The translations under genes and the position numbers were made by a program. From a virus (taxonomy: Duplodnaviria > Caudoviricetes): a stretch of 64,000 bases of DNA. The stretch's first letter is position 1; the number at the start of each line of letters is the position of its first letter. Under the pieces are notes generated by a model. The model worked only from the letters and a program-made list of their open reading frames with translations, was not told where the DNA came from and made no database searches. Of the stretch, positions 2,771 to 61,350 are shown piece by piece. The stretch covers positions 1 through 64,000 of the IMG/VR virus record IMGVR_UViG_3300021387_000535. One strand, given 5' to 3'.

Positions 2771-3163
2771 ATGTACGAGATTACGACAACGTTCACAAAC
2801 GTGAATGATAAGACGGTTAGGGAAAGCTACGTTCTTGAAAACGCAACATCTTTCTCGGATGCGGAACACACTATGTACGCACTACGTAGCGACTTTCCAG
2901 ACTTTGATGTAACGGCAATAAAGCGTAGTAGGGTAAAGGAAATACTCAACAAGCGTAGTAGCCAAATTGATTTGATTTGGCAAGCGGAGCTAATGGATAT
3001 GTTTGTAGACGAAGATGGCAATGAACATCCGATAAAATATAAAACATTGTTGTTCGCGGAAACGTTTGACGACGCAAAGGTCTTTGTTAGCGAATATATA
3101 AAGCAAGGGTACAACCTTAGTTTGATAAGTTTAAAGTTGACTAATTTCGAAGACATTCTATGA
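2771..3163 (+). CDS. DUF4494-like Bacteroidetes protein
   Basis: ESYVLENATSFSDAE motif and two-repeat layout recalled from DUF4494. Confidence 0.5.
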   Translation: MYEITTTFTNVNDKTVRESYVLENATSFSDAEHTMYALRSDFPDFDVTAIKRSRVKEILNKRSSQIDLIWQAELMDMFVDEDGNEHPIKYKTLLFAETFDDAKVFVSEYIKQGYNLSLISLKLTNFEDIL

Positions 3164-3564
3164 TTCATGAACAGACCATTCTCGGATCACCACCGAGCAA
3201 ATCAAATCAATACAAGGTGATAACGCTCAAAGGACACGGGTCTTTGGCAAAGACAAGTGCATTGAAAGAATACGAAAAGCGTTTCTTTCTTGAATGTGGC
3301 GCATACCGCAACAAGAATATAAAGGGCTTTTTTGAGTTGTATATCGACGTGTATTTTTCAAGTAATAGACCCGACCTCGACAACGCACTAAAAAGTACAC
3401 TTGATTGCTTGCAAGCATGTAAGGCTATCGCAAATGACCGTAATTGTGTCAAGATTGTCGCGAATAAGTTTGTTGACCCAATTCGACCGAGAGTTGAATT
3501 TACAATCAAGGAGGTTGATGGAATAGAAGTACACAAGAGTAACGAACCAAAATTATTTGAATAA
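3160..3564 (+). CDS. rusA: RusA-family Holliday junction resolvase
   Basis: PPSKSN, RPDLDNALKSTLDCLQ, NDR..V and PRVEFTI motifs. Confidence 0.88.
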   Translation: MIHEQTILGSPPSKSNQYKVITLKGHGSLAKTSALKEYEKRFFLECGAYRNKNIKGFFELYIDVYFSSNRPDLDNALKSTLDCLQACKAIANDRNCVKIVANKFVDPIRPRVEFTIKEVDGIEVHKSNEPKLFE

Positions 3565-4187
3565 TGATTTCATATCAAGATGCAACAGAAATACTACACA
3601 CAAGAGGTGTTTCGTTTGATATTAAACAATACCTATTCGTCTTGCAATGCGCACTATCCGAAGATGTTGGTGTTGCCTACGGAATGATATACGACACGGC
3701 TAACTTCAAAAAGGTGATAAACACCGAGGATGCCGTGGAATATATCGCAGAAAAAAAACGTGATGCCGACGTGATGTTGCAACAACAGGAATGCCAGCAT
3801 TTAAAGGAACTTATAGAAGAATGGAAACGAACGGAAATCCAAAACGAAGCAAGCGAGCTTAAGACATTTAAATATTCAAGCGAGGATGTAGCCAATATGC
3901 TATCCAACCTTTTGTTTGAAAGGTCGAAAAGCTTGGAAGACGCATCCGTTCGTGATATAGTACAGCTTATACGTGAGTTGAATTCGCAAGGCGCACTTGA
4001 CGGTAGCGGTAATGCGTTTTCCAAACACTTCGTATCCGTATATCCGCACATGACGGCATTATGCCCCGCGTGCCATAGGGAAACCGATGTTGCGGTTGGG
4101 ATGACGTGCTATTGTATAAGATGCGGTGCTGAATTCCGTTGGAGCGAAGAAGAACATAGATACTATCCTAAAGTAGAATCTATATAG
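3564..4187 (+). CDS. Hypothetical protein with C-terminal zinc ribbon
   Basis: CPAC-x12-C(Y)CIRC near the C-terminus. Confidence 0.65.
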   Translation: MISYQDATEILHTRGVSFDIKQYLFVLQCALSEDVGVAYGMIYDTANFKKVINTEDAVEYIAEKKRDADVMLQQQECQHLKELIEEWKRTEIQNEASELKTFKYSSEDVANMLSNLLFERSKSLEDASVRDIVQLIRELNSQGALDGSGNAFSKHFVSVYPHMTALCPACHRETDVAVGMTCYCIRCGAEFRWSEEEHRYYPKVESI

Positions 4188-4195
4188 TATATAGC

Positions 4196-4390
4196 ATGGA
4201 TGAAAATAGCATAAAAGAGATTGCAAATATGCAAGCAAAGATTGATAGATACGAGGCGTTCATTCTATCAACATGGTTTATGATAATCACAAAGGTAAAG
4301 GTTGATTGCCCGATATTCGTTAGAACGGATTATGATAGGCAAATGCGCGAAATTTGGAGATTTATCAAAGAAAAGAACGATATAGAATAA
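4196..4390 (+). CDS. Small hypothetical protein
   Basis: 64-aa ORF ending the + operon. Confidence 0.55.
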   Translation: MDENSIKEIANMQAKIDRYEAFILSTWFMIITKVKVDCPIFVRTDYDRQMREIWRFIKEKNDIE

Positions 4391-4397
4391 CATAAAA

Positions 4398-4431
4398 GCC
4401 GTGATTTGCTTGTTTTTAAGCCCGCCACGGC
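4398..4431. terminator. Possible hairpin between convergent operons
   Basis: GCCGTG...CACGGC inverted repeat in the convergent gap. Confidence 0.3.
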
Positions 4432-4481
4432 ATTATCTTTGCCTTTCTTTGATAGTTGCCCACCGAACAAAAGAAACGCGC

Positions 4482-4850
4482 TTATTCGGCTTTATTTCCG
4501 TTCAATGGGATTGCATACACTTCTTCCTTGTTTTCCTTTTCGTTCTCACCAAGTGTTTTCTTTAGATAATCCGTGCTTGTGCTTGGACTTCCCCATCCAC
4601 CACCAAACATAGAACTAAGAATGCCAAGTGCAAACATATTTCCAAGACCATTGTCAAACTGCATTTTCTTTCCCCAAAGCAATTCGCACAGCGTGCTAAG
4701 ATGTGCCTCGGTGGTCATCTTGTCCTTGTTGTACTTCTGCTTTTCAAACTCGTCAAGTTTGTAGAACTCTTCGCTATATACGAATTTTGTCTTCTCCACA
4801 ATGCTTTCAAGTGTAACCTTGTATTCCTCTAAAAGCTTTTCTCTTTCCAT
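4482..4850 (-). CDS. Hypothetical protein (cassette gene 6)
   Basis: Start reassigned to ATG 4850 after an (AAT)n A-rich leader; the poly-Asn extension is likely untranslated. Confidence 0.65.
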   Translation of the reverse strand: MEREKLLEEYKVTLESIVEKTKFVYSEEFYKLDEFEKQKYNKDKMTTEAHLSTLCELLWGKKMQFDNGLGNMFALGILSSMFGGGWGSPSTSTDYLKKTLGENEKENKEEVYAIPLNGNKAE

Positions 4851-4879
4851 ATTATTATTATTATTATTGTTTTTTTTAT

Positions 4880-5272
4880 TTAACGGCACGGAACGGCAAT
4901 GTTTTCGACGGCTAAACGCATCAACTCACCTTGTAGATATGCTGCTGGCTCTTCGTCGTAAGGTTCTCCGTAGTAATCGATAATTGCCGTAACCGCATGG
5001 TATAACTCATGGTTAAGTGTACTCCAAAACTCACTCGCACTTGTAGGCTCACCGATATAGATAACGGTCATACGTAAGCCACTATTGGAAACGGCCATAC
5101 CTGTATTAGGCGACGATAGAATTTGAATTGATTTTCTTATATCGCGTTCACTCATTCCAAATGAATAAAGAACGGCAGATATATCATCCCAATCATTCAT
5201 ATCAAAGTCATAGTTAACCAATATGCCCCAATCGTTGTCGCCTACCTCTAAATACTTTGTAATCATAGTCAA
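4880..5272 (-). CDS. HExxH (zincin-like) motif protein
   Basis: NHELYHAV motif plus downstream EPAAYLQG. Confidence 0.6.
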   Translation of the reverse strand: MTMITKYLEVGDNDWGILVNYDFDMNDWDDISAVLYSFGMSERDIRKSIQILSSPNTGMAVSNSGLRMTVIYIGEPTSASEFWSTLNHELYHAVTAIIDYYGEPYDEEPAAYLQGELMRLAVENIAVPCR

Positions 5273-58621: not shown

Positions 58622-58736
58622 AAAATGACAAATGGCAAAGTTTAATTTTGGAAACTATATACCTGTTGACTTAAGAGTTTTATAAACTTTGTGATATTTA
58701 TTATTATAATAACGAAACAAACATATATAAAGAAAT

Positions 58737-59105
58737 ATGAAGAGAATAACAAGATTAACAGAAAGTGACCTTCGTAGAATCGTGAAAGAGTCTGTAAAGA
58801 AGGTATTAAAAGAAGGAGTTTTTGATAGTAAACGTATACAAGTGGAACTTGATAATTCTTTAGGTGGTGGGGCGATGGTTGCCGATTTTTATTCAAGTGA
58901 CGATATGGTAACAATTATCACACGTGGTAATGGGGTTAATTTACACGAACTTGATACTGTTATGAATGAATTAGGGTATGAGAAATTTCGAATGATTCCA
59001 AAGGCTTGCGATGAACACCTTTTCATCCATAAAGATAGTTTAGGGAAGTATTATGATGACGAAACCACAAATAGGCTAAAAATGGAACACGGTTTTGATG
59101 TTTAA
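58737..59105 (+). CDS. Passenger gene with MKRITRLTESDLRRIVKESV N-terminal motif
   Basis: 122-aa ORF wholly inside the TIRs. Confidence 0.75.
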   Translation: MKRITRLTESDLRRIVKESVKKVLKEGVFDSKRIQVELDNSLGGGAMVADFYSSDDMVTIITRGNGVNLHELDTVMNELGYEKFRMIPKACDEHLFIHKDSLGKYYDDETTNRLKMEHGFDV

Positions 59106-59125
59106 GCAACCTTACACAGCCTTAA

Positions 59126-59233
59126 TTAACTCCAAGTAACAATCACTCCAATGGACTTGTTGAACATATCCTCAAAGCGTTCCAATCGGGACGCTTTTCT
59201 TGTGTTCCAACAATACATGCTTTTATTGACATC
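59126..59233 (-). pseudogene. C-terminal remnant of an IS1595-family transposase
   Basis: DVNKSMYCWNTRKASRLERFEDMFNKSIGVIVTWS* resembles the recalled Y.DE..FRWNTR....ERF..M tail. Confidence 0.6.
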
Positions 59234-59534
59234 TTCACTTCAGTCAACAGGTATATAATTCCCTTAATTTTTCAATCACGGCGCACGTTAATAATGGCGC
59301 TATGGTTATTTATTCAAAAGACTATGTCTTCAATGTAACGCAGTTAGTTCGGTTTTGACATTAGCCGAATTTTGCATGCCGTTTAGACATTGGTCTATTG
59401 ATGATGGCGATGATGTTGTAGGTTGCACTTATTGTCAATATGTGTCTTATGATGACAACAAAGAGGACTACCTACTTGCATCGTGGTACGAGGTCGACGA
59501 AGATGATTGTATAATACTTTAACACTACAATGAT

Positions 59535-60558: not shown

Positions 60559-61350
60559 ATGAAACAATATGTAACCTATCTTCGCGTCTCGACTCAGCGT
60601 CAAGGCGCACAAGGACTTGGTATCTCTGCACAGAGGAATATGTGCGAGAACTTTATCAAACAAAACAAAGGAAAGCAAGTCCAAGAATTTATGGATGTAG
60701 AAAGTGGTACGCATCGTGACAGAAAGGGTCTATGGCAAGCGATTGACTACTGCAAGAAGAATGGTTGCAGCTTAGTAATTGCGAAGTTGGACAGAATGAG
60801 CAGGGATGTGGAGTTTACTTTCAAGGTAATTAACACAGGCATAGACATTCACTTTACGGATATGCCCGTTGTCAATTCAATGATACTAGGTGTATTTGCC
60901 GCCGTTGCTCAATACGAGCGGGAAATGGTATCAGATAGAACAAAGAAGGCTCTCGCGGTCAAGAAGGCGCAAGGTTGCAAGATGGGTGCTGCAAACGAAA
61001 TATACCGTCTTAATTACAAGAACAAAACCGAAGAAGAAAAGGCGAAAGTTCAGGCGGCAAAGGGGACATCAAAGAGGAATGGCCATCACGCTTCTAAAGA
61101 CGTGCAAGGTTTCATTAAGGTTGTGCGTAAGGAGTTCAAGCAACTTAAATCGGACAACCCGAGCGAATGGAATTGGTCTATCGTTAATTGCAAAAGACCG
61201 CATCTTAACAACATGCTTGAAAGAATGCAAGAGTATCAGATGTTTGATTCATCTTTGTTTGAGAGATGGGACTTCAATGCGCCGAACGTTGAGCAGAAAT
61301 TTAGGAGTTACATGCAGGCGTTCAAGAAGTCTTATTATAGTGTGTGTTAA
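60559..61350 (+). CDS. Small serine recombinase (resolvase/invertase family)
   Basis: YLRVSTQRQ (catalytic Ser), ESG...R, LVIAKLDRMSRD, AQYEREMVSDRTK. Confidence 0.92.
   Translation: MKQYVTYLRVSTQRQGAQGLGISAQRNMCENFIKQNKGKQVQEFMDVESGTHRDRKGLWQAIDYCKKNGCSLVIAKLDRMSRDVEFTFKVINTGIDIHFTDMPVVNSMILGVFAAVAQYEREMVSDRTKKALAVKKAQGCKMGAANEIYRLNYKNKTEEEKAKVQAAKGTSKRNGHHASKDVQGFIKVVRKEFKQLKSDNPSEWNWSIVNCKRPHLNNMLERMQEYQMFDSSLFERWDFNAPNVEQKFRSYMQAFKKSYYSVC

Follow-up and report, generated by a model that had tools for sequence, protein, structure and literature searches.

The window analysed here comprises the first 64 kb of an IMG/VR virus record, which has a length of 72.9 kb and an estimated completeness of 92%. 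Genes for a large terminase, a primase/helicase and a tail fibre are present, and the carrier is a rumen-type, virulent-type phage of 73 kb. At positions 58650-59263 lies a 614-bp element with 26-bp inverted ends, flanked by a perfect 8-bp direct repeat, TTAATTTT (58642-58649 and 59264-59271). The left terminal inverted repeat (TIR; 58650-58675, plus strand) is GGAAACTATATACCTGTTGACTTAAG, with one mismatch to the 22-nt end consensus of the family, GGGAACTATATACCTGTTGACT, and the right TIR (59238-59263, minus strand) is GGGAATTATATACCTGTTGACTGAAG, with at most one mismatch; read in order, the window gives TTAATTTT, GGAAACTATATACCTGTTGACTTAAG, 562 bp, CTTCAGTCAACAGGTATATAATTCCC and TTAATTTT. The two ends are identical at 23 of 26 positions and form the longest inverted repeat that a repeat finder returned for the region. 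Between them we found one intact ORF of 122 amino acids (58737-59105, plus strand) and the relic of a transposase gene (59126-59233, minus strand), and no transposase gene. A 614-bp cassette with TIRs, an 8-bp target duplication, a single intact passenger ORF and a 35-codon transposase tail had been proposed in a preliminary description of this DNA, and all of these features were recovered. The phage holds one copy of the cassette, the G+C content of which is ~30-37%, against 41-55% upstream of 58250.

The element interrupts a protein-coding gene. The first six codons of this gene (MAKFNF) occupy 58632-58649 (plus strand), their last eight bases being the left copy of TTAATTTT, and the remainder (59264-59522, plus strand) starts with the right copy, which places the insertion in codons 5-7, inside the gene rather than between genes. 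The stump now yields a 17-residue peptide, translation entering the element and then stopping, and the downstream part is itself split by a frameshift into pieces at 59263-59357, in one frame, and 59355-59522, in another. These pieces align to residues 5-33 and 39-95 of intact genes of 93-95 amino acids in four relatives, the frameshift coming with a short loss around residues 34-38. A 25-mer across the predicted empty site matched one viral contig, and a protein-guided scan recovered the same contig and three more. In these four related phages the target is uninterrupted, the empty allele that the preliminary description had proposed to look for; the gene start reads ATGGCAAAGTTTAATTTTTCAATCACGG, and the site reads ATGGCAAAGTT(T/C)AATTTTTCAAT.. 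or a close variant. The octamer occurs there as a single copy, exactly TTAATTTT in three of the four and TTATTTTT in the fourth. The target gene is conserved at 93-95 amino acids in relatives, with a truncated version of 86 amino acids in one locus, and the insertion has inactivated it. The frameshift would fit decay after inactivation, although either lesion may have come first. A small serine recombinase of 263 amino acids (DNA invertase/resolvase type, phrog_125) is encoded at 60559-61350, 1.3 kb downstream of the cassette, and no link between the two was seen.

Cassette and autonomous IS1595-family elements have GG-starting TIRs in common, and TIRs shared with the cassette bound IS1595 transposase genes in L052, L060, L063, L092, L095, L096, L098 and L172. 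The ends may also resemble the consensus of the ISNwi1 type, a subgroup of IS1595. The transposases of relatives match Pfam PF12762 and PF12760, and those of L060, L103, L106 and L172 match the NCBIfam model NF033547, 'IS1595 family transposase', at 193-208 bits (cut-off 75), in agreement with the earlier designation as IS1595-like. Two other classes were considered. An autonomous IS1595 insertion sequence was rejected, given that ~35 C-terminal codons are left and that a PF12762 search of the 92%-complete phage record found no IS1595 transposase. A short non-coding element bounded by insertion-sequence ends was rejected for the cassette on account of the intact gene inside; true non-coding siblings with the same ends do exist in L018 (238 bp) and L079 (136 bp). 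A chance origin of the ends and duplication is excluded because the same ends occur in dozens of loci and in 16 further complete elements. The element is an IS1595-derived mobile insertion cassette, and this category is an established one.

Cargo gene and its leader

The 122-residue passenger is preceded by a promoter-like motif, GATATTTATTATTATAATAA (58693-58712, plus strand), with a role suggested by its sequence. Its degenerate pattern, RNTATTTATWAT, occurs twice in the 64-kb window, one occurrence being this motif, and related TATTTAT-type motifs stand before each leader gene in L081 and L085 and before the neighbouring gene in L082. A sigma-70 promoter scan gave five sites, with 5.1 expected. 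The AlphaFold2 model of the protein (pLDDT 78) consists of an N-terminal helix and a small alpha/beta domain (residues ~30-120). No family was matched in Pfam, PHROGs or NCBIfam, the ESM Atlas returned only unnamed clusters below 0.85, Foldseek found nothing at E ≤ 0.001 in the PDB or BFVD, and the best hit of a wide structural search with VIA-align, the jumbo-phage protein 4m1x of unknown function, has a Z of 6.3, which is at noise level.

Eleven homologues of the protein were detectable. One, in L085 (59% amino acid identity), lies in a cassette with sister-type ends and its own transposase-tail remnant; another, in L081 (74% identity), is part of a run of tandem leader genes with a tail remnant on either side, and no family ends were found around it. 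The association between cargo and shell is therefore older than the present copy. The L081 array (3100-4900 of a 360-kb contig) contains four leader-bearing genes in tandem, each preceded by a CTATTTAT-type motif, and its two flanking tail remnants have the same orientation.

Only the first ~27 residues of the cargo are widely shared. This LTESDL leader, MKRITRLTESDLRRIVKESVKKVLKE (58737-58814, plus strand; residues 1-26), matched 3,784 protein clusters at E ≤ 0.001 in a profile search, the proteins among the matches listed being of 41-555 amino acids. The motif is usually N-terminal and at times internal or repeated. Across 181 instances its conservation ends at [L/I]-x-E, with L or I at position 19 in 91% and E at position 21 in 91%, and the sequence is variable thereafter. 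Three near-complete giant phages with sister elements (335-413 kb) have 7-30 leader ORFs each and a fourth record, an 11%-complete fragment, has three; all four of these records encode a Peptidase_S77 of the T4 gp21 type, which is found in four of the five records of phages with sister elements. Leader genes are also common cargo of autonomous elements, including the chromosomal one in L172. In the 73-kb carrier the cargo is the only leader ORF, and no Peptidase_S77 match was obtained in its 92%-complete record. The cargo is thus a leader gene of the giant-phage class, foreign to its carrier.

In phage T4, internal proteins bear a capsid-targeting sequence and the gp21 prohead protease cuts at (L/I)-x-E. 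The LTESDL leader resembles that sequence in being short, N-terminal and attached to otherwise unrelated small proteins, with conservation that stops at [L/I]-x-E, and the giant phages with many leader genes encode, like T4, a gp21-type Peptidase_S77. It differs in length (26 residues against ~10), in its unrelated sequence, in often being internal or repeated, and in that its cleavage and packaging are predicted; the carrier phage, unlike T4, has no S77 match. By this analogy, our best guess is that the leader is most likely a capsid-loading tag, predicted to be cut by a T4-type prohead protease. Since the carrier lacks such a protease, the cargo may be a passenger that has no role there. A literature search with the leader motif string returned nothing relevant.

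It could instead be that the 122-residue protein is itself active, either as a DNA-binding or recombination-directing mobiliser or in anti-defence or host takeover, rather than capsid cargo out of its context. The ORF is intact, it hardly varies between the two cassette copies described below, and in each phage it runs in the same direction as the phage genes around it; a small alpha/beta fold is confidently predicted for the protein. We nevertheless regard an active protein as improbable: none of the searches ties it to a known family or fold, and the leader places it in a class known from giant phages that have a T4-type head protease. Moreover, sister elements with the same ends carry wholly different cargo (TnpB, a SocA/Panacea-domain protein, unrelated ORFs), and the cargo therefore cannot be the mobilising function.

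Transposase remnant and probable parental layout

The relic at 59126-59233 consists of ~35 C-terminal codons and the stop codon of an IS1595-family transposase gene. Its minus-strand translation over 59141-59230, VNKSMYCWNTRKASRLERFEDMFNKSIGVI, aligns to residues 271-300 of the full-length transposase of L052 with 47% identity, and at DNA level the stretch 59114-59217 matches the 3' termini of the intact transposase genes of L094, L103 and L106 with 80-83% identity. Remnant and intact transposases have the motif WNTRK..RF..MF in common. As the similarity begins within ~7 bp of the inner edge of the right TIR, the deletion took the 5' leader and ~270 codons of the gene. In the elements of L060, L095, L103, L104 and L106, transposase and cargo genes converge, the cargo gene adjoining the stop codon of the transposase gene, and the cassette is a miniature of this layout. 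The exact autonomous parent, intact and with the same ends and tail type, was not found, because the remnant is closest to the transposases of elements with sister-type ends (GGCAAT-AATATA..AGTTGAC). One truncated copy in L063 has the same KAS-type tail, apparently inside an element with a GGGAAC-type left end.

Antisense within the transposase tail, and ~70 nt downstream of the cargo stop, there is a 10-bp hairpin, AAAGCGTTCC/GGGACGCTTT, with a T-tract (59174-59207, plus strand), the hairpin being followed on the cargo strand by TTTTCTTGT. A terminator scan returned two sites, with 0.4 expected, and the hairpin has an energy of -15.6 kcal/mol (z -4.8). Intact transposase genes of the nearest clade (L102-L107) contain a hairpin with a T-tract at the same place on the antisense strand, perfect and of 10-11 bp, and hairpins are also present in the L081 and L085 remnants; in a more distant transposase clade the hairpin with T-tract is absent. 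The hairpin has two variants at sequence level, coding for KAS..ERF and KMSESERF. These lie in shifted registers and are thus separate solutions, not compensatory pairs of one common structure. The hairpin is a putative terminator of the cargo transcript that would be built into the coding sequence of the transposase, and such an embedded terminator would explain a deletion derivative that kept exactly the transposase tail.

Taken as a whole, the locus is very probably best explained as a non-autonomous mobile insertion cassette, derived from a passenger-carrying IS1595 insertion sequence and moved in trans. Judging from the architecture of its relatives, the parent would have had, between its two TIRs, a transposase gene and then, convergent with it and directly adjoining its stop codon, a cargo gene with a leader. 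An internal deletion would then have removed the transposase gene from its 5' leader to about codon 270, leaving both 26-bp ends, the cargo with its upstream motif and the last ~35 transposase codons, probably kept for the antisense hairpin and T-tract that would terminate the cargo transcript. An IS1595 DDE transposase, supplied by the host Bacteroidales chromosome or by a co-infecting giant phage, would act in trans by binding the GGGAAC-TATATACCTGTTGAC ends and inserting the cassette at AT-rich octamers through an 8-bp staggered cut. In the window, the cassette landed in codons 5-7 of a small conserved phage gene and killed it.

Sister elements and a second copy

When viral contigs were scanned with the 16-nt core of the ends, many loci were recovered that have GGGAAC and an AT-rich flank before the core. 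The loci retrieved include 16 further complete elements that combine the same ends with a perfect 8-bp AT-rich duplication: L009 (379 bp; duplication AAATTTTA), L018 (238 bp; TTAAAAGA), L011 (1,438 bp; ATATATTA), the complete autonomous elements in L052 (CTTATTTT), L060 (TTAATTTT) and L063 (ATTAATTT), and those in L079, L092, L095, L096, L098, L104, L106, L111, L113 and L172. The elements in L052, L060 and L063 are of 2.3-3.1 kb, and each encodes a protein of 311-341 amino acids with Zn_ribbon_IS1595 and DDE_Tnp_IS1595 domains. Relatives bounded by the same TIRs are therefore abundant and include transposase-bearing ones, both the autonomous partners and the alternative cargo for which the preliminary description had suggested a search. 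A protein-guided scan gave 78 viral loci with related transposases, six of them with the same ends and perfect duplications, and four of these six are on contigs of 129-412 kb. Autonomous copies are found in giant-phage contigs of 235-412 kb. In a scan of one genome per prokaryote species, the ends occurred in 46 stretches, nearly all from Prevotella, Prevotellaceae, Paludibacteraceae and other Bacteroidales metagenome-assembled genomes of rumen or gut origin. A genuine Prevotellaceae chromosome holds an autonomous copy (L172, 7583-10534; duplication TTTTTTAA), with GH130 and epimerase genes to one side of it and a SusC/SusD pair to the other.

A second copy of the cassette is present in an unrelated phage of ~130 kb (L082; contigs of 127-131 kb), at a different site and with a different duplication, TAAAATAA. 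The two copies align over their full length with 557 of 571 aligned bases identical (97.5%) and have the same deletion junction; the cargo gene (369 bp) differs by one substitution, and the proteins are 99% identical. The second copy has a further deletion of 43 bp within the transposase tail. Outside the cassette, the two phages have no similarity except one 61-nt leader-coding match, and the contigs of the second phage also encode a protein of 1,129 amino acids that weakly matches a phage sheath domain. A 29-mer specific to the junction had no match in the viral_contigs collection, and in metagenome_contigs it matched only a contig of the L082 phage (L173). In all collections searched, the exact cassette is carried by two phage lineages only. 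The two insertion sites suggest that it was mobilised in trans by an IS1595 transposase, and its mobility may be rare or past, given that only two lineages carry it. An insertion-sequence-based shuttle moving genes between phages, as first suggested for the window copy, is supported by this near-identical copy with its own duplication and the same junction in an unrelated phage.

In the second phage the cassette sits in the upstream region of another leader gene (L082 3879-3919 and 4485-4593; also in L173). Of the 14 differences that separate the two copies, ten fall within the 24 bp that precede the cargo start, where the L082 copy resembles the upstream region of its neighbour, which suggests local gene conversion.

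Alternatively, the cassette could have arrived by recombination with a phage or the host, as a moron or through illegitimate or homologous exchange, the repeats being incidental. The upstream region and leader of the cargo have homologous counterparts at resident genes of other phages, and a 109-nt stretch of the sister copy in L173 is 79% identical to the upstream region of the neighbouring gene, so that exchange between such modules is possible in principle. Such an origin is nonetheless extremely improbable, as it is contradicted by the empty-site alignment, in which the duplicated octamer is the single-copy sequence in three of four relatives. The dissimilar flanks of the two copies and the perfect 8-bp duplications of the 16 same-ended elements also count against it.

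The cassette might also be a fossil, once mobile and now a scar rather than a working shuttle. Its ends differ from each other at three of 26 positions, its target gene has had time to acquire a frameshift, only two insertion sites of the exact cassette were found, and the 43-bp deletion shows that the sister copy has decayed further. Against this, each end is one mismatch from the consensus with the core TATATACCTGTTGAC intact, the 97.5% identity between copies in unrelated phages and the single substitution in 369 bp of cargo point to recent movement, and intact transposases with matching ends exist in the same habitat. We consider a fossil rather unlikely, while giving it appreciable weight, and favour a cassette that can still be mobilised in trans.

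Relation to known systems

Mobile insertion cassettes (MICs), such as MIC231 derived from IS231 in Bacillus cereus (De Palmenaer et al. 2004, as cited in PMC3129680), are described in that source as insertion-sequence ends around passenger genes, without a transposase gene and with the cognate transposase acting in trans. The present element resembles them in that inverted ends bracket one or a few passengers and no transposase gene, in its flanking target duplication and in its presumed dependence on a cognate transposase supplied in trans. It differs from MIC231 in deriving from IS1595 rather than IS4/IS231, in residing in a virulent-type phage rather than a chromosome or plasmid, in carrying a phage gene, and in having kept a 3' relic of the transposase gene, apparently as a terminator for the cargo. 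IS1595 elements with passenger genes have been termed 'transporter IS' (Siguier, Gagnevin and Chandler 2009, as cited in PMC3129680), and GG ends, an 8-bp duplication and a transposase with a zinc ribbon and a DDE domain are features of the family (PMC8101967). The cassette has such GG-start ends, the 8-bp duplication and an internal passenger, and the transposases of its relatives combine an N-terminal zinc ribbon with DDE_Tnp_IS1595; unlike a transporter IS, the window copy has lost its transposase.

TnpB genes within inverted-repeat ends of the DDE-transposase type have been reported (Altae-Tran et al. 2023, PMC10691335), and IS1595 is absent from the DDE partners that the main text of that paper names. 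Sister shells in L011 (5003-6440) and L029 (11438-12885), with the same IS1595-type ends, similarly carry tnpB alone and share the dependence on a borrowed DDE transposase, whereas the window cassette carries no nuclease. Their TnpB proteins are of 374-386 amino acids and match OrfB_IS605 and a Cas12f1-like TNB domain, and ~75-100 bp separate the 3' end of tnpB from one of the two element ends.

Transfer of genes between unrelated phages is generally attributed to recombination, and to our knowledge insertion sequences have rarely been documented inside genomes of virulent-type phages. Here the chain of evidence for transposon-mediated transfer is complete, comprising a filled site, four empty sites, a near-identical copy elsewhere and autonomous partners, the last known in both a host chromosome and giant phages. 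This is a clear though not unprecedented case of transposons moving genes between phages and Bacteroidales hosts; less usual are the phage carrier, the class of cargo, the proof of transfer between unrelated phages and the retained putative terminator. IS1595 cassettes can break phage genes, leader genes of giant phages leak into small phages and bacterial chromosomes, and the same IS1595 shell also carries the RNA-guided nuclease TnpB. For annotation, such small cassettes are easily mistaken for ordinary phage genes. More tentatively, and with the odds in our view against it, IS1595 shells might serve the Bacteroidales virome of rumen and gut as a general system for exchanging gene cassettes, in which self-contained expression units are moved by transposases of giant phages and hosts. 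Each shell would then comprise a single gene, the motif upstream of it and a terminator concealed within the transposase tail, and capsid-loaded proteins, TnpB and genes of the toxin-antitoxin type would be traded among bacteria and phages, both giant and ordinary, in a way loosely comparable to the exchange of integron cassettes between bacteria.

Several individual sister elements have features of their own. The 379-bp cassette in L009 (607-985) is nearly filled by an ORF of 107 amino acids that matches nine PHROG families of unknown function, in their C-terminal ~90 residues only, and a single domain is therefore travelling as cargo. Elements in L022 (1302-2631), L029 (11438-12885) and L036 (2239-3178) have perfect family ends and non-matching 8-bp flanks, which could reflect recombination between copies or adjacent insertions. 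The autonomous element in L172 carries a leader gene of the giant-phage type (199 aa) and is inserted just upstream of the SusC/SusD pair, in a polysaccharide utilisation locus of the mannan type. The autonomous element in L063 (4482-7628) has three passenger genes, one of them encoding a SocA/Panacea-domain (antitoxin-like) protein, with a neighbouring ORF of 145 amino acids, and it is adjoined by a second, truncated element that is interrupted by an IS3-like insertion.
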